Source: Alphaproteobacteria bacterium (GTDB lineage Bacteria; Pseudomonadota; Alphaproteobacteria; SHVV01). From it: DNA of 64,000 bases. Positions 57,509-64,000 of this stretch are shown in pieces. A program made the translations under genes and the position numbers. Position 1 is the first letter of the stretch. The number at the start of each line of letters is the position of its first letter. The notes beneath the pieces are model-generated. The model was not told where the DNA came from and searched no databases. It worked only from the letters and a program-made list of their open reading frames with translations. The stretch covers positions 4,224,001 to 4,288,000 of the forward strand of contig OZ253470.1 of assembly GCA_965261735.1 (NCBI GenBank). The letters are read 5' to 3'.

Positions 57509-58708
57509 TCACTCCTTGCGCGGCAGAAACAACATCGGCACGAAATAGGCGGTAAACAGCGTGAAGGCGACAAACCAACTGCCGGCGGTTGCCCAGAGCA
57601 GACTTAGAGCGGGCACGACCTCGAAGGCTGCGCGTGTGCAGACCGCCAGCGTAGCGAAACCGTATATCGCGACAACCCATGGTCCAGCGTGGAGGTCGCG
57701 CCCGGTATGGCCGAGAACCGCGCGGGTCATGACGGCCAGGGTCATCGTCCCGATCGCGCCGAGTGTAAGTACATGCAGCGCCAACGGCTCCATCACCCAG
57801 TCTACGAGCATCGAGGCCCCGAGAAGGCCGAGGCCCAATGCAAGCCAGAAGTAGCCGGCATGCAACACAGTCACAAGCGGCTCGGCTGCCGTCCTCCAGC
57901 CCCGCCATCGTGCCAGCCGGACGAGGTTCAATGCCCCTGCTAACGTTAGGAGAATGCCGGAAAGCGGGATAGGCGCCGATCCCACCCAGGCCGCGAGCGC
58001 AACCGCTGTCACGGCGAGCGTCGTTTGGTCGAACCGGCCCATCGGCGCTGTGATATTCGGGCCCGCTCGCCGCTCGAACCAGTTGTGCGTGAAGCTCGGA
58101 ACGATGCGCCCGCCGATCAACGTTATTAACAGCGACATGACGGCGATGGAGAGCCGAACACCCGCCTCTCCCACATGAGCCACGCCCGCCGCGGAGAGAT
58201 GGAACAGCACGTTGGCGGTCAACATCAGTATAAGCCCGGCGAGGACCGGCAGATTGCGCCAGTTGCGGCCCGCAACGATCGCGTTACCGACAAGAACCGA
58301 GAGAACTCCCAGATAGGCAAGATCGGCGACCGCCGTTGGCATTGGTCCGACTGCGCCTCCCCACCAGACGGCACCCCGGCCGCAAAGCCAGATCAAGGCG
58401 AGTGCGCCGAGCGGCCAGCCCCTTACTGGAGGGCGCCCGGTCCAGTTCGGCACCGCGGTCAACACGAAGCCACCGAGCGCCGCCCCGACATACCCGAACA
58501 TCATCTCATGGACGTGCCACATCGTCGCATCGCCCAGCCCGGGATATGAGATCGCCCCCGACCAGATCCCGATCCATAGGGGCACAGACAGCGCAGCCCA
58601 CAGCCCGGCCAGGAAGAAAAGCGGGCGAAAACCCTCTCGAAGAAACTCCGGCCCGGAATAGTGGCGTTGCGGTTCTAGCCGTGTCTGGTTCGTTATTTCT
58701 GCCCCCAT
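57509..58708 (-). CDS. nnrS: NnrS-family membrane protein
   Basis: GFRPLFF, WHVHEMMFGY, GFVLTAVPNWTG, GGRIVPSFT, MTRAVLGHTGR. Confidence 0.93.
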   Translation of the reverse strand: MGAEITNQTRLEPQRHYSGPEFLREGFRPLFFLAGLWAALSVPLWIGIWSGAISYPGLGDATMWHVHEMMFGYVGAALGGFVLTAVPNWTGRPPVRGWPLGALALIWLCGRGAVWWGGAVGPMPTAVADLAYLGVLSVLVGNAIVAGRNWRNLPVLAGLILMLTANVLFHLSAAGVAHVGEAGVRLSIAVMSLLITLIGGRIVPSFTHNWFERRAGPNITAPMGRFDQTTLAVTAVALAAWVGSAPIPLSGILLTLAGALNLVRLARWRGWRTAAEPLVTVLHAGYFWLALGLGLLGASMLVDWVMEPLALHVLTLGAIGTMTLAVMTRAVLGHTGRDLHAGPWVVAIYGFATLAVCTRAAFEVVPALSLLWATAGSWFVAFTLFTAYFVPMLFLPRKE

Positions 58709-58961
58709 GAGGGTGTGGGTCTGGTATGGAAAATCTAAGTCATTGATTTAGTGCGTTTTTGTGTCGAGACGAACGGCCGAAAACGGCTATTCGTGACAAT
58801 GGGCCGCTCCAAGGCAGGATTTTGTCACGACGGCAGGGTGGAGCAGGGGAGGTGGGAACGCTCCGCACCGCCAGAGGCGGTACGATGCCGTGTCTCGAAA
58901 CCCAACATCGGGAGCATTGCCATGGCAGTATCCCCGCCTCCGGCGCCTTCGTCCATCGATC

Positions 58962-59026
58962 CTTGCCTATCCGGTTTACACCCACACCCACTAGGGCTAG
59001 AATGGGCGCAAACCGGATATAGGGGA
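58962..59026 (+). mobile_element. IS1595-A left-end remnant (~65 bp)
   Basis: CTTGCCTATCCGGTTTACACCC...GGATATAGGGGA (1 SNP). Confidence 0.9.
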
Positions 59027-59120
59027 TGAAATAGGTCTGCCCAAAGCTGGACGAGAACATCATCAGCATCCCGAAGCTCAGAAAGCCGCGGTTGCGTAGA
59101 ATGAAATGGAAATAGGTCAC
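59025..59120 (-). pseudogene. MFS transporter N-terminal remnant
   Basis: FILRNRGFLSFGMLMMFSSSFGQTYFI, cut by the IS1595-A remnant. Confidence 0.65.
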
Positions 59121-59149
59121 AGGAAGGCGTTGTCATGTATGGACGCCCC

Positions 59150-59387
59150 CGGTGTTGCAAGGGGAAAACTGATTTGAATCGGCGGTAGAGCTTGCAGTCA
59201 TGTATCCGGCCTTTTCGCTGCGGTACGCTGACCGCTGGCCCTGATGGAATCCGAAAGATCGACGCCCAGTCAGACTAACGAGCTTGATGCTCGGACAATG
59301 CCTCGGGTTTGGCCGATCTCGGGTGGAACCCTGTTTCGCCATCAAATCGTCGTCACCCTCGCAATTTGATCCCGGTTTGCCAGCTGG
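59150..59387 (-). ncRNA. Putative bridge/seek RNA downstream of the IS1111 transposase
   Basis: Guides GGCATTGTC and GTTAGTCTGAC match both sides of the target; CCATCA and ATACATGA match the circle junction; RNA boundaries approximate. Confidence 0.75.
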
Positions 59388-60425
59388 CTATGCCGGCGTC
59401 GGTCGGTAGATACGCTCGTACCTGAGCAGTGCCCAGGCGACACGGGCTGCCTTATTGGCCATGGCGACCAGCACCACGTTTGTCGGCCGCCGCGCCAGGA
59501 GCCGGTCGGTCCAGCCAGGCCCCGTGCCCGGCTTGGCGCGGCGCCAGCGCAGCACGCTTCGCGCACCATGCACGAGCAAGCGCCTGATATAGCCATCCCC
59601 GCGCTTCGAGATCCGCCCCAGCCTGTCCTTGCCGCCACTCGAGTGTTGTCGGGGCACGAGACCGAGCCAGGCCGAGAGCTGCCGGCCCGAGCGAAACTGC
59701 GCGCCATCTCCGATCGTCGCGACCAGCGCCGTCGCGGTGATGACACCGACGCCGGGGATCGTCGCAAGCCGGCGGCTCGCCTCGTTGGAGCGGTGCCATG
59801 CCATAAGTGTCGCCTCCAGCTGCTTGATCCGGGCCTGAGCAGAGCGGAGCTGCTCAACCAGAGAGCCAAGCGCCTCGCGTGCCAGAGGCGGCAGTCGCAC
59901 ATCGCCGGGATCTTCGATAATGGCAACCAGTTCCTCCACCTTCGACGCCCCCTGAGCGACGATCAGTCCGAACTCCGCACAGTGGCCGCGCAGCGCATTG
60001 ATCACCATCGTGCGTTGACGGACCAACAGCTCTCGGGCCCGGTGCAGCATCAGAACCGACTGCTGCTCGGCGCTTTTCGCCGGTGCAAAGCGCATCGTCG
60101 GACGCGTCACTGCCTCACAGATCGCTTCCGCATCCGCTGCGTCGTTCTTATTCGTTTTGACGAAGGGACGAACGTATTGAGGCGGAATCAGCTGAACTTT
60201 GTGCCCGTGTGCTTGCAGTTCCCGAGCCCAATAGTGCGCAGAGGCACAGGCTTCCATACCGACAAGACAGGATGGCAATCCGGCGAAGAACGCCAGCACC
60301 TTCTGTTGGTAGCGACCGTAAATTTCCCATTTGTAACGACCCAAAATTTCTCACTTTGGGCTTGTCGCTGAAGGCGTCCCGGGCCGCTCTGTTGGCTTTG
60401 CCAACAGAGCGGGATCGGTGCGCGG

Positions 60426-61448
60426 ATGTACAAATGGGAGACCAGGATGTTGTTGAAGCACTATCTGGACCGGGGTGTCTCGAAGGCGGAGCTGTCGAGG
60501 CGGTTCGGGGTGAACCGTCGGACGATCCACAATTGGGTCGATACCGGCCAACTGGACCGGGATCTGGCGGCCGGTGCGCGAGGGTATTCGCCCCGTCCGC
60601 CGGTGGCCCACAAGCTGGACCCCTACAAGGCGATCATCGACGCCCGTCTTGAGGCGTTCCCGAAGCTGTCGGCGAAGCGGCTTTTCGATGAGGTCCGCGC
60701 TGCGGACTACCCGGGCTGCTACTCTCGCGTGAACGACTACGTGCGGGCGACGCGACCGCGCGAACCGGTTGAATCGCTGGTCCGGTTCGAGACGCCGGCG
60801 GGGCGTCAGGGCCAGGTGGACTTCGGTACGTTCACGCTGCCCTGGGGCCGGCGCCATGCCCTGGTGATCGTCCTCGGCTTCACCCGGCTGCTGTGGCTGC
60901 ACTTCTATACTCGGCAGACCATGCCGGTCCTGATGGAAGGTCTGGAGAGCGCCTTCGACCGGTTCGGCGGGGTTCCGGAGGAGCTGCTGTTCGACCAGAT
61001 GCGCGCCGTGGTGCTGTCCGACGACCGCGGGGCCGGCGGCGGCCTGGTGCTGAACGAGGAGTTTCTGCGGTTCGCCGCGCACTGGGGGTTCATGCCGCGC
61101 TCGTGCCGACCCTATCGGGCCCAGACCAAGGGCAAAGTGGAGCGCCCGATCCGCTACATCCGCGAGAGCTTCTTCTACGGCCGCTCGTTTGCGAATGACA
61201 ACGATCTCAACGAGCAGGCCGTGCGCTGGCTGGAGGGCACAGCCAACGTCCGCCGGCATGCCACGACCGGGGAGCGTCCTGTCGACCGCTTCGAGCGCGA
61301 CGAGCGAGCGGTGCTTCTCCCCTTGGCGAACCATCCCTATCGACGTCTCGGCGTCCGGCATGCTCCGGAGCCCGCGCCGCGGCGACTGCCGGCAACCGTG
61401 AAGGTCGAGCAGCGACCGCTTAGTGTCTATGCGGAGGCGCTGCAATGA
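60426..61448 (+). CDS. istA: IS21 transposase
   Basis: RFETPAGRQGQVDF, LFDQM, TKGKVERPIRY. Confidence 0.95.
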   Translation: MYKWETRMLLKHYLDRGVSKAELSRRFGVNRRTIHNWVDTGQLDRDLAAGARGYSPRPPVAHKLDPYKAIIDARLEAFPKLSAKRLFDEVRAADYPGCYSRVNDYVRATRPREPVESLVRFETPAGRQGQVDFGTFTLPWGRRHALVIVLGFTRLLWLHFYTRQTMPVLMEGLESAFDRFGGVPEELLFDQMRAVVLSDDRGAGGGLVLNEEFLRFAAHWGFMPRSCRPYRAQTKGKVERPIRYIRESFFYGRSFANDNDLNEQAVRWLEGTANVRRHATTGERPVDRFERDERAVLLPLANHPYRRLGVRHAPEPAPRRLPATVKVEQRPLSVYAEALQ

Positions 61449-62242
61449 ACGCTCCGGCGCCGGCCCGGCGCGACCGGCTGCGGGCAATGCTGGCGGACCT
61501 CAAGATGCCGGGCGCGCTGGAGGCCGTCGACGGCATCCTCTCGGACGCCGACGGCGGCACGATCTCGGCGGCCGAGGCCATCGAGCAGTTGCTGAACGCC
61601 CAGATCGTGCTGCGCAACAACCGCCGTCTCCAGACCGCCATGCGCTCTTCGCGGCTGCCGGCTGTGAAGACGCTCGATCAGTTCGACTTCGCCTTCCAGC
61701 CCAGCATCAAGCGCGAGCAGATCGAGAGCTTGCACGAGCTCGGCTTCCTGGACCGCGGCGAGAACGTGATCCTGCTCGGCCCACCAGGCGTCGGGAAAAC
61801 GCACTTGGCGATCAGCCTCGCGATCGCGGCGGCCGAGGCCGGCCGGCGCGTCTACTACGGCACGCTCGCGGCGCTGATCGAGTCCCTCACCGAGGCCAAG
61901 GCCGCCGGCAATCTGACCCGGCGGCTGCGCGTGCTCACCCATCCGGCCCTGCTGGTGGTCGACGAGATCGGCTACCTGCCGGTCAACCAGGACGGCGCCG
62001 TGCTCTTCTTCCAGCTCATCAACGCCCGGCACGAGAGGGCGTCGACTGTGCTGACGTCGAACAAGGGTTTCGAGGACTGGGGTGGCGTGCTCGGCGACGA
62101 GGTCATGGCGGCGGCTCTCATCGACCGCCTTGTGCACCACTGCCACATCGTCAACATCCGGGGCAACAGCTACCGGATGAAGGAGCATCAGAACCTGCTG
62201 CAGTCCGGCTCGGATCGACGCAGGAAAAGAGCCGCCGCGTGA
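61445..62242 (+). CDS. istB: IS21 helper ATPase
   Basis: GPPGVGKTHLA, VDEIGYLP, DRLVHH, GNSYR. Confidence 0.95.
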   Translation: MNAPAPARRDRLRAMLADLKMPGALEAVDGILSDADGGTISAAEAIEQLLNAQIVLRNNRRLQTAMRSSRLPAVKTLDQFDFAFQPSIKREQIESLHELGFLDRGENVILLGPPGVGKTHLAISLAIAAAEAGRRVYYGTLAALIESLTEAKAAGNLTRRLRVLTHPALLVVDEIGYLPVNQDGAVLFFQLINARHERASTVLTSNKGFEDWGGVLGDEVMAAALIDRLVHHCHIVNIRGNSYRMKEHQNLLQSGSDRRRKRAAA

Positions 62243-62798
62243 TCGCCGGCTCAAACGGAGACAGGAGCGGTGACACCCGCCCGCTGTGGATAACCGGGTT
62301 GTCGCCGCCAGACTCTTGGCGGTCGCTGCGCCAACCCGGTTACCTACAGCTCGACCAAGTCCGACACCCCAAACACCGCGTCTGGGGGTACGACCGAACG
62401 CTCAAAGTGAGAAATATTTCGATCGACAAAAGTGGGAAATTTTCAGTCGCAATTGACACCTTCCCGCGGCGCAGCTTCCGCCGTAGTACCGGTCGTCCCT
62501 CACCATCAGCACCGTGAACCTGGAACACCGTCTTTGCCAGATCAAACCCAATTGTCGTAATATCCATCGTGGACGCTCCCTCTGTCTGGGTTGTTCAACA
62601 CACTCCAGTATGGCTCATCGTGAAGCCGTAGGGGGCTTCCATACCATCAGACGAACTGGATAGGATCTGAAGAACCTGCAAACCAGGCCTCTCAGGCTGC
62701 AAGTTGACGCCACTCGGCCAAGGCGGCGGCTCGGGTTTGTTTGAAAATATCGCGGCGGTTGAGATGGCGTTCGTGGCTGAAGTGGTTATGGATTGAGG

Positions 62799-63903
62799 CT
62801 TGCCTATCCGGTTTACACCCACACCCACTAGGGCTAGAATGGGCGCAACCCGGATATAGGGGAGCGCGCCATGGATGTTCTCGACCGCGCCGATCTCCCA
62901 TTCCCGCATTCGCTACCCGAGTTCCAGCGACTTTTCCCCGATGATGCGGCCTGCGCCGCCTACCTGGAGAAAGCCCGCTGGGGAGACGGCTTTGCCTGCC
63001 CGCACTGCGGCACGGCGGGAGAGCCGTTCCACTTTGAAAACCGCCCTGGCGTCCTGCGCTGCCGCAAGTGCCGCCAGAACACCGGGCTGACGGTGGGAAC
63101 AGTGATGGAGCGTAGCCACACTCCGCTGAACGTCTGGTTCTGGGCCGCTTATCTGGTCGCCAGTCAGACGCCCGGCATGTCCGCCGTGCAGTTTCAGCGG
63201 CAACTTGGTCTTTCGCGCTACGAGACGGCCTTTCAAATTCTCCACAAGCTCCGCTCGGGCATGGTGCGGCCCAACCAAGACAGGATCGGTGGACAGCCCA
63301 AGAACCATGTTGAGATGGACGAAACCTGGGTTGGCGGGCGAACGCGTGGGGAAGGCCGTGGTGTTCACCACAAGGTTCCCGTCTCCTGTGCCATCGAGGT
63401 GCGTCATCGAAAGCCGGGCACCAAGCTCGACAACCGGAAAGACGGACGCTATGCCGGACGCGTTCGGCTCGCCGTCGTGCTCGACCGTAGCGCCGAGTCG
63501 CTCTGTGGGTTCGTCGAGAGCACCGTCGCGCCGCGATCGCTGATCGTTACTGACGATTGGAGCGGCTATGCTGGCCTCGGGAAGCGCGGCTATGAGCACT
63601 TCGCTGTTGCCGAGTGTGGTGATCCAGAGGTTGCCGAGCAATACCTGCCGATCATCCATCTGGTTTTCGCCAACCTGAAGACGTGGCTGATCGGTATCCA
63701 CCACGGCGTTAGCCACCAGCACCTACAAGCCTACCTCAACGAGTTCACCTTCCGCTTCAACAGGCGGTTCTACCCGTTCAACGCCTTCCGCTCATTGCTC
63801 GGCATCGCGGGCGACACCTCTGCTCCAACCTATGCCGAGCTTTACTCGGGAGAGTGGCGGCACCCTACATGTAGCGGTCATGGGCGTTAACCGGATAGGC
63901 AAG
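62799..63903 (+). mobile_element. IS1595-A full-length copy (transposase 62871-63890), non-matching flanks
   Basis: Both IRs present; left flank GATTGAGG (IS6), right flank GTATGTTC (IS1595-B). Confidence 0.95.
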
Positions 63904-64000
63904 GTATGTTCTCAATATGTTCTGTATGAGGGGGTCACGGTTATGGGGTTCAAGGTTGCATCGCGCGTGCGTGGTCTGAACGACGAGGCGTTTCGGGAGG
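63904..64000 (+). mobile_element. IS1595-B body starting at its base ~34 (continues beyond the window)
   Basis: Matches 46866 onward except for one G-run length difference. Confidence 0.92.

Follow-up and report, generated by a model that had tools for sequence, protein, structure and literature searches.

Two lines of work published in 2024 established that the insertion of certain mobile elements is directed by an RNA: the bridge RNA of IS621, a bispecific molecule with a target loop and a donor loop (PMC11208160, PMC11208158), and the seekRNAs demonstrated experimentally for the IS1111-family elements ISEc11, ISKpn4/ISPst6 and ISPa11 (PMC11187229). Members of the latter family are recognized by subterminal inverted repeats of 11-13 bp, by extensions of 7 bp at the left end and 3 bp at the right, by a long 3' non-coding region and by a transposase of 330-350 amino acids; in their seekRNAs, the short form of which spans 70-100 nucleotides (nt), a complement of the top strand lies 5' of a complement of the bottom strand, with overlapping matches in the target and an order that is reversed relative to IS621 (PMC11187229). 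No structure is available for the IS1111 branch, whose mechanism is stated to differ from that of IS621 (PMC11187229). Here we describe an IS1111-family element in a 64,000-nt stretch of alphaproteobacterial DNA (contig OZ253470.1, positions 4,224,001 to 4,288,000; hereafter 'the window', to which coordinates refer unless a genome position is named). The element occupies the minus strand from 62649 to 59136 and appears to encode, in its own 3' non-coding region, a guide RNA matched to the terminal repeats of insertion sequences of the IS6 family.

The nearest biological parallel is found in IS4321 and IS5075, which likewise belong to the IS1111 family, possess subterminal repeats, and occupy, at a single position and in a single orientation, another transposable element's terminal repeat; those elements target transposons of the Tn3/Tn21 family, whereas the target of the window element would be the short terminal repeats of IS6-family elements and of their miniature derivatives. 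Its transposase and RNA are, by the comparison with plasmid records given below, not close to theirs. With ISEc11, ISKpn4/ISPst6 and ISPa11 the window element shares its 3' non-coding region, its 7- and 3-nt extensions, a transposase of approximately 340 amino acids, two short guides in the same order that overlap in the target, and natural retargeting among relatives (PMC11187229). The targets of those elements comprise a short linear site, integron attC sites and REP sequences, whereas the IS6 repeat is known as a target from comparison alone. Relative to IS621, the window element is similar in having a bispecific RNA with target and donor loops, each of which recognizes, about a common core, the bottom strand to the left and the top strand to the right, and in having guide extensions that match the non-cognate partner (the 'handshake' guides of IS621 pair with partner DNA after strand exchange; PMC11208158, PMC13626964). 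It differs from IS621 in that the RNA lies at the 3' rather than the 5' end, in the reversed order of the guides within each loop, in its long subterminal repeats, in a core that is apparently TG(A) rather than CT, and in carrying the cross-matching extension on the left guides.

We favour, at a probability of about 0.88 and on the basis of sequence comparisons, the reading that this is an RNA-guided IS1111 element matched to IS6-family terminal repeats, which inserts in the ends of another mobile element. The seekRNA and bridge-RNA mechanism itself is known; what is new is the IS6 target class, together with a natural series of retargeted guides. Among the titles and opening lines of abstracts returned by literature searches, none reports an IS1111-family element that targets IS6-family repeats; ISfinder and the published supplements lie outside that scope, and the target logos of more than 300 ISfinder entries (supplement of PMC11187229) and Supplementary Table 5 of PMC11208160 could include such an element.

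The target site and its empty counterpart

The two target guides of the predicted RNA together specify a 17-bp sequence, GTTAGTC-TGA-CAATGCC, which in one IS6 subgroup makes up positions 1-17 of the terminal inverted repeat, and the point of insertion lies between positions 10 and 11 of that repeat. Chance can be excluded as the source of these matches: when the non-coding region was shuffled 5,000 times with its dinucleotides preserved, not one shuffle matched the consensus target at 9/9 and also at 11/11, and not one reached at least 8/9 plus at least 10/11 to the window's own flanks. With GTTAGTCTGACAATGCC as the predicted target, the window's own variant is GTTCGTCTGACAACGCC; the left target guide matches the window's GTTCGTC/TGAC at 10 of 11 positions.

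A preliminary description of this DNA had proposed that removal of the element would rejoin AGTTCGTC and TGACAACGCC to form an IS6 repeat, and precisely that sequence was found, uninterrupted, at the end of an intact element of the IS6 family, whose terminal repeat it forms and whose transposase has 231 amino acids, in another alphaproteobacterial metagenome-assembled genome (MAG; locus L118). The L118 sequence is identical to window positions 62650-62800 at 149 of 151 bases; its IS6 end reads GGCGTTGTCA/GACGAACTGGATAGG..., beginning GGCGTTGTCA/GACGAAC with nothing between the two halves, and a comparison of the joined flanks with the window indicates that nothing was duplicated or lost beyond the shared TGA core. 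On this alignment L118 is the empty site of the window insertion, and the two loci together indicate insertion into one specific site, in one orientation and without target duplication. Since the repeat of the intact L118 relative is exactly GGCGTTGTCAGACGAAC, the window insertion entered a site that departs from each guide at a single position, in agreement with the earlier suggestion that approximately one mismatch per guide is tolerated.

The target element can be assigned, at the level of sequence, to the IS6 family by its IS6/IS240-type DDE transposase, its length of about 0.8 kb and its short terminal inverted repeats. Intact 805-bp copies at two loci (L112 and L117) end in the perfect target; the terminal 16 bp of the L112 copy are the same at both ends (GGCATTGTCAGACTAA), and its 231-amino-acid transposase scores 175.1 bits against NF033587 (cut-off 125), in addition to matching PF13610. 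The sequence that follows the insertion in the window had been correctly identified as IS6, although what is present is only a 150-bp remnant (62650-62799) that is truncated by an IS1595-family element. Its last 35 codons are 77% identical to the C-terminus of the L112 transposase, and its stop codon (62692-62694), previously placed about 35 bp away, in fact precedes the insertion point by 42 bp and the IS6 terminus by 52 bp.

The ideal target that had been predicted, TTAGTCTGACAATGCC, occurs uninterrupted more than 100 times in the genome of a relative (G001), where it forms the end of an IS6-family element of 805 bp, and about 11 IS1111 copies are present in the same genome. The pattern GTTARTCTGACAATGCC was found there 440 times at two or fewer mismatches, versus once for a reversed-pattern control.

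Junctions of other copies

About a dozen copies of the IS1111 element are present in the window's genome, which is a single contig of 5.03 Mb, and the expectation that the flanks of other copies would rebuild IS6 repeats was borne out at 9 of 9 external right junctions and at 9 of 12 left junctions. On the right, the flank is TGACAATGCC in five cases and a one-base variant in the other four, and the DNA beyond these 10 bp is different at each junction. On the left, six junctions correspond to the interior of the right repeat (three read ...GTTAGTC, and three are one base off: GTTCGTC in the window, GTTGGTC and GTTTGTC), two correspond to ...CCCATTTACTC, the left-repeat form of the same IS6 type, and one (GTTAACT) lies in the repeat of a miniature element of approximately 132 bp. 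A flank of the CCCATTTACTC type adjoins the N-terminus of a full-length IS6 transposase gene at locus L037. Wherever orientation could be resolved, the element has the IS6 interior on its 5' side, such that the start of the transposase gene points to the IS6 interior.

Related genomes display the same arrangement. Of 29 high-identity matches to the non-coding region in three other genomes (G001-G003), 27 run through the 10-bp IS6 terminus, and 25 end within two more bases; among related loci of the 97% group, the right flank is TGACAATGCC in 9 of 10.

The miniature element, which has IS6-type terminal repeats (GGCTTTGTCAAGTTAAC...GTTAACTTGACAATGCC), is present in about eight copies (for example, at genome positions 1959964-1960109, 335730-335877 and 338842-338976), and the one at 1963846 is occupied by an IS1111 copy despite three mismatches to the left guide. 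A 179-bp IS6 remnant (1989069-1989247; the L009/L014 region) has an IS1111 left end at each of its repeats, in opposite orientations; the two flanking IS1111 copies are diverged and stand head to head, one with a left-repeat-type and the other with a right-repeat-type flank. No uninterrupted site with zero or one mismatch to the 18-nt ideal target remains in this genome, and the cognate IS6 type is represented solely by fragments beside IS1111 copies. At least 17 intact IS6 elements of other subtypes (with repeats ending ...CGTTAAC) have four mismatches to the target, and none of these is occupied.

The uniformity of the right junctions, set beside a left flank that is perfect at just 3 of 12 junctions and unrelated to the guide at another 3, and beside the miniature-element insertion with its three left-guide mismatches, raises the question of whether insertion is RNA-guided, but effectively by the right guide and core (TGACAATGCC) alone, with IS6 ends being simply the commonest carriers of that 10-mer. 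Such an account appears improbable: at least 16 uninterrupted IS6-type ends in which the right half is perfect or one base off, and which have three left mismatches, are all empty, whereas sites with a mismatch count of zero or one have been exhausted; the left guide covaries with the left flank among relatives (GUUAAUG with GTTAATG, AUAACG with CTAACG, GGCAGCU with GCAGCT); and the three unrelated left flanks, which lack an uninterrupted counterpart in the genome, fit later rearrangement.

Two copies display further irregularities. At genome positions ~1987694-1987713, two IS6 termini stand in tandem immediately after an IS1111 right end (TGACAATGCC, then TGACAACGCC; the copy ends at 1987714), one possibility being that the element took a previous 10-bp flank with it on entering another IS6 end. 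In the copy at 2942630-2944361 (L007/L012), the last 378 nt are repeated in tandem, resulting in two RNA genes and two right ends in a total of 1,732 bp, and the first right end adjoins the element's own transposase-gene sequence (TGGACCGACC...).

A predicted RNA with target and donor loops

The non-coding region folds better than its own shuffles (z = -3.45). In an alignment of this region with 15 homologues, whose transposases are 56-97% identical, a 40-pair structure was evaluated with RNAalifold and a pair count: 92.8% of cells were paired, versus 36-44% when the partner was slid by 1-3 columns, 15 pairs were changed on both sides, and none of 500 column shuffles performed as well. The check by folding and covariation for which the preliminary description had called thus came out in its favour, and these models support the interpretation of the region as a structured RNA gene with two internal loops. 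The long-range helix that closes the domain (columns 43-51/259-267) is paired in only 82.6% of cells in the same alignment, in which a distant group aligns one column out of register; this helix is nonetheless probably real.

The target-binding loop consists of two closing stems, a 5' single-stranded segment (GGCAUUGUC), a cap hairpin, and a 3' single-stranded segment, (G)UUAGUCUGAC; by analogy, it probably corresponds to the short seekRNA described for other members of the family. GGCAUUGUC lies 5' of GUUAGUCUGAC, and their two matches overlap at GAC in the target. The predicted donor loop comprises CCAUCA, a GGCC-closed hairpin, and AUACAUGAC. By the definitions of PMC11208160, the guides follow one another from 5' to 3' as right target, left target, right donor and left donor, which is the reverse of the IS621 order. 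All of the motifs quoted in the preliminary description (GGCATTGTC, the hairpin, GTTAGTCTGAC, CCATCA, ATACATGA at 59205 to 59198, and both element ends) were recovered on the minus strand where they had been placed.

The donor loop had been proposed to fit the predicted circle junction on both of its strands. Its motifs are indeed present, but ATACATGA extends to ATACATGAC, which fits the integrated right junction, CCATACA/TGAC, better by one base, such that the donor-side match is better read, from the sequence, as the right end plus the right flank of the target (a handshake-like arrangement) than as a pure circle junction.

A further segment of the RNA, UGAUGG (59344 to 59339, minus strand), is a copy of the top strand of the element's left end and pairs, in the consensus fold, with the right donor guide CCAUCA (59247 to 59242); in the distant group this segment, the donor guide and the DNA end change jointly (UAAUGC, GCAUUA and TGATGC). 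The pairing could have a structural role or could serve to mask the guide, or the segment could act as a guide for the second strand.

A contig from one RNA-library run (X13), which is a single contig at a depth of about 12, follows the element from 59130 to 59267 and then enters the terminus of an IS6 of the CGTTAAC type (GGCATTGTCACGTTAAC...); it would represent an IS6 insertion within the IS1111 guide-RNA gene of some relative.

Guides that change with their targets

Relatives with transposases 56-97% identical to that of the window element carry different guides in the same alignment columns, and these fit their own flanks. The relatives found number 524. Among 80 related loci, the ends were not located by repeat search in 13, which left 67, and in 4 of these the flank was shorter than 20 bp; the other related loci, together with eight complete copies from the window's genome, formed a set of 74 elements. 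In this set, guides fit their own flanks at an average of 12.2 of 16 positions, whereas the flanks of elements whose 5' guide differs are fitted at 7.4 of 16; for a distant REP-targeting group the register of the right guide is off by 1-2 nt, and the same shifts were allowed for all pairs in the scoring.

Individual loci illustrate the pattern. L046 combines the 5' guide GGCAUUGUC and the 3' guide GUUAAUG-UGAC with the flanks GTTAATG and TGACAATGCC, and L047-49 combine the 5' guide GGCUUUGUC and the 3' guide AUAACG-UGA with flanks of the CTAACG type and TGACAATGCC. L053-55 have the 5' guide UAAACUGUC and the right flank GGACAGTTTA; L098 has the 5' guide GUGAUUCA and the 3' guide GGCAGCU-UGAU, and lies between GCAGCT and TGAATCAC. 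The large distant group, with UGUGCCA and GCUUU-UGA guides, is located in REP-like palindromes. Three of the lineages (the window, L046 and L047 types, with left guides GUUAGUC/GUUAAUC, GUUAAUG and AUAACG) each match a different IS6 repeat subtype, and each of the three subtypes is found uninterrupted beside IS6 transposase genes in the lineage's own host genome; an additional locus, L050, adjoins a divergent IS6 transposase gene.

Two groups of relatives lie outside IS6 repeats. Elements in Hoeflea MAGs (L052-L056 and L103), with transposases 69-70% identical, are inserted into a repeated motif of approximately 35 bp (GTGCCAGAAATTCGG-TGA-CGGTTTACTTAATTC), and those in many alphaproteobacterial MAGs (L059-L110), at 56-59% identity, are inserted into REP-like palindromes (ATGTCCGCTT...AGCGGACAT); guides and insertion sites match in both groups.

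The donor guides track the ends of their own elements in a similar manner: a change of the right extension from ACA to AGA accompanies AUACA to AUAGA, CCAT to CCAC accompanies AUACA to ACACA, and a left end altered from TGATGG to TGATGC accompanies CCAUCA to GCAUUA. The four bases that follow the left donor guide are nearer to the right flank of the target in 68 of 73 elements (one element with an insertion in the guide columns having been dropped) and nearer to the element's left end in none, with five ties; counted by distinct combinations, the right flank is favoured in 17 of 19. The four bases that follow the left target guide are nearer to the element's left end in 12 of the 19. These extensions resemble the handshake guides of IS621, and by analogy may play the same role here.

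A further account, in which the transposase protein itself recognizes the DNA of the IS6 repeat and the non-coding region holds its matches incidentally or as captured remnants of IS6, can draw on the presence in that region of sequence identical to parts of the IS6 repeat, and on the comparative nature of evidence in which neither an RNA nor a ribonucleoprotein was observed. We regard this as very unlikely. The two segments do not constitute one captured copy, since one is in the orientation of the repeat (positions 1-9) and the other is the reverse complement of positions 7-17, with a conserved hairpin between them; they change with the flanks in at least nine guide/target lineages, in which the stems are kept by compensatory changes; and the RNA has been found experimentally to be essential and programmable for four members of the IS1111 family (PMC11187229).

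The least probable account, in which the flanks are shared through copying because one ancestral IS1111 insertion in an IS6 element spread as a composite unit or by segmental duplication, can invoke the mobility of IS6 elements, the extreme repeat content of the window's genome, and two copies (2942630 and 3095510) that have 35 bp of unrelated left flank in common and may be duplicates, but it is contradicted by left flanks that fall into unrelated classes (right-repeat, left-repeat and miniature-element repeat), by right-repeat-class flanks that are only ~87-95% identical where the IS1111 copies are 98-100% identical, by the occupation of both repeats of the 179-bp remnant by two copies in opposite orientation, by the many uninterrupted targets in G001 and the empty site in L118, and by relatives with different guides in correspondingly different sequences, which copying cannot explain. 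Composite duplication and captured IS6 sequence were both among the candidates considered and rejected.

Observations that weigh against RNA-guided insertion into IS6 ends

Several observations count against the reading of the element as RNA-guided and matched to IS6 ends. The GGCC stem of the donor loop is invariant, and covariation is uninformative for it. Contigs assembled from three metatranscriptome runs, which belong to two studies, span both the transposase gene and the non-coding region, but a DNA run has a similar depth profile, and assembled RNA-library contigs cannot reveal transcription, strand or transcript ends. No sigma-70-like promoter was found before the non-coding region, a promoter and terminator scan of 59050-59550 being empty; such a lack is expected from the literature, in that transcription would start at a promoter formed at the circle junction. 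No match to an abutted-end (circle or tandem) junction was found in the assembly or in any of the fetched loci. The three left junctions that are unlike the left guide (ACATTTC, ACATTCC and ACCAGCC) would require either later rearrangement or a loose left-guide requirement. The window copy itself is dead, with an IS21 element within its transposase gene and one mismatch in its left subterminal repeat. Finally, IS6-family elements create an 8-bp target duplication, and none was seen at the two intact IS6 copies inspected (L112 and L117); in a genome with hundreds of IS6 copies, recombination between copies could erase it.

Proposed mechanism and significance

By extension from its family (PMC11187229), the element is expected to move as a circle in which its two ends are abutted. 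Formation of the circle junction would create a promoter (the right end contains a conserved TTGCAA, and a junction-spanning hexamer follows it after 17 nt), and this promoter would drive both the transposase gene and the RNA. The DEDD transposase would then be guided by the RNA from the element's own 3' non-coding region: the donor loop would read the element's own left and right ends (through CCAUCA and through AUACA plus UGA, respectively), and the RNA-transposase complex would pair, on both strands, with the 17-bp site and the junction, with strand exchange at the TG(A) core. The element lands 10 bp inside the IS6 end, in a single orientation and without target duplication, probably disabling that IS6 end by severing its terminal 10 bp from the rest of the repeat. 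The window copy entered a variant of the IS6 repeat with one mismatch per guide and was later inactivated by IS21, and its IS6 host was truncated by IS1595.

The relative G001 still has hundreds of free IS6 ends, in contrast to the window's genome with only fragments beside IS1111 copies. A broader proposition, which we consider doubtful, is that the clade of IS1111 elements with transposases at least ~73% identical consists of specialised hyperparasites, or natural RNA-guided suppressors, of IS6 elements, that their left guides have diversified alongside the IS6 repeat subtypes (GACTAAC, CATTAAC and CGTTAAC/CGTTAGC), and that the cognate IS6 lineage has been driven to extinction in the window's genome. 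Were this so, the guide extensions, in following the partner DNA, would for the first time allow handshake pairing to be studied by comparison within the IS1111 family.

What these loci add to the published mechanism is a natural series of guides retargeted among closely related targets, together with support, by comparison, for a handshake-like pairing among IS1111 elements, in which the 3' extension of the left donor guide tracks the right flank of the target. RNA-guided IS110/IS1111 recombinases are under development as tools for genome editing, and the empty, occupied and near-cognate sites of this clade, which are readable from genomes, can reveal guide positions that tolerate mismatches. 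IS6 ends would join the short list of mobile-element ends that serve IS1111 elements as safe, multi-copy and horizontally travelling landing sites, and a natural system that reads the IS6 terminal repeat is of practical interest because IS6 elements are important for gene mobilisation in many bacteria.

Element anatomy, coordinates and neighbouring sequences

The 3,514 bp occupied by the element in the window (59136-62649) represent a 1,354-bp IS1111 element plus a nested IS21-family insertion; the wider bounds given previously (59126-62660) took in about 10 bp of flank on each side. Intact 1,354-bp copies are located elsewhere in the genome (for example, at positions 1963846-1965199); the intact copy used for comparison encodes a 339-amino-acid transposase, and the window copy differs from it at 23 positions. 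The 12-bp subterminal repeats are complementary at 11 of 12 positions in the window copy and at 12 of 12 in other copies, and the ends across copies read TGATGGT plus ATGGA(A/C)GCCCCC on the left and GGGGGCGTCCAT plus ACA on the right. The non-coding sequence amounts to 252 nt 3' of the transposase gene (59136-59387), versus 82 nt 5' of it.

Against NF033542 (cut-off 140), the transposase of an intact copy (L006:1397-2416) reaches 348.8 bits; PF01548 and PF02371 are matched both by this protein and by the C-terminal piece in the window. The transposase is 339 amino acids long in five of the eight complete copies in the genome. It is accordingly classed, by profile match, as a DEDD (RuvC-like) transposase with an IS110-type C-terminal domain. 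Because the profile scores, the subterminal repeats with their 7- and 3-nt extensions and the long 3' non-coding region coincide, the element is placed in the IS1111 group of the IS110 superfamily, all of whose sequence-level defining features it displays. No Rfam family was found for 58500-64000 at E<=1, and a collection of 72,556 plasmid records held nothing above ~70% nucleotide identity, its best match (66-69%) being annotated 'IS110 family transposase'. The nested IS21-family insertion, of 2,153 bp, starts after 193 nt of the IS1111 element, at about codon 37 of the transposase gene, with CACCTTC at both sides. The positions of these and other features are collected in Table 1.

Table 1. 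Positions of the element, its predicted RNA segments, its target and nested or adjacent elements in the window; ranges within a cell that run from a higher to a lower number are read on the minus strand.
Feature	Coordinates	Strand	Basis or remark
IS1111 element	59136..62649	-	Motifs in place; intact 1,354-bp copies elsewhere in the genome
Left end: 7-nt extension TGATGGT (62649 to 62643) and subterminal repeat ATGGAAGCCCCC (62642 to 62631)	62631..62649	-	
Right end: subterminal repeat GGGGGCGTCCAT (59150 to 59139) and 3-nt extension ACA (59138 to 59136)	59136..59150	-	
Transposase gene, N-terminal part, ATG at 62567	62457..62567	-	
DEDD transposase gene, C-terminal part including stop codon	59388..60303	-	Pfam PF01548 and PF02371
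Predicted seekRNA/bridge-RNA domain, closed by long-range helix UUGCGAGGG (59365 to 59357) with CCCUUGCAA (59163 to 59155)	59155..59365	-	Folds, covariation
Predicted target-binding loop, whole, with closing stems (GAGAUCGGCC, 59320 to 59311, with 59263 to 59255)	59255..59320	-	Covariation, helices 3-5
Putative right target guide GGCATTGTC	59294..59302 (59302 to 59294)	-	
Cap hairpin CGAGC-AUCAA-GCUCG of the target-binding loop	59279..59293 (59293 to 59279)	-	3 of 4 counted pairs with compensatory change
Putative left target guide GUUAGUC then UGAC (GTTAGTCTGAC)	59269..59279 (59279 to 59269)	-	Same as top strand of left flank plus core
Putative right donor guide CCAUCA	59242..59247 (59247 to 59242)	-	Complementary to element left end TGATGG
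Putative left donor guide AUACA then UGAC	59197..59205	-	Equals right end ATACA plus first 4 nt of the target's right flank
Outermost 10 bp of IS6-family right inverted repeat (GGCGTTGTCA on the plus strand), severed from IS6 by the IS1111 insertion	59126..59135	-	
IS6-family remnant, 150 bp: inner right repeat (GACGAACTGG...) and last 35 transposase codons	62650..62799	-	
Nested IS21-family element	60304..62456	+	istA 60426-61448, istB 61445-62242
IS1595-family element truncating the IS6 remnant; outside the system	62800..63902	+	Transposase 62871-63890

The IS1595-family element beyond the IS6 remnant (~62800-63902) encodes a 339-amino-acid transposase with matches to PF12762 and PF12760, and a 66-bp copy of its left end is present at 58962-59027. 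A 400-nt flank query that included this left end returned about 200 BLAST matches in the 5-Mb genome, and the IS1595 family has therefore undergone a massive expansion there. Among ordinary chromosomal genes, the one closest to these nested insertion sequences is a 399-amino-acid open reading frame at 57509-58708 on the minus strand, of the NnrS family (PF05940, 354.7 bits).

Near-identical sequence (at least half of the sampled words) was present in 17 of 24 listed public runs, from 12 studies, and because these include sponge, marine and marine-sediment metagenomes, the distribution suggests that the host lineage is marine and possibly sponge-associated.

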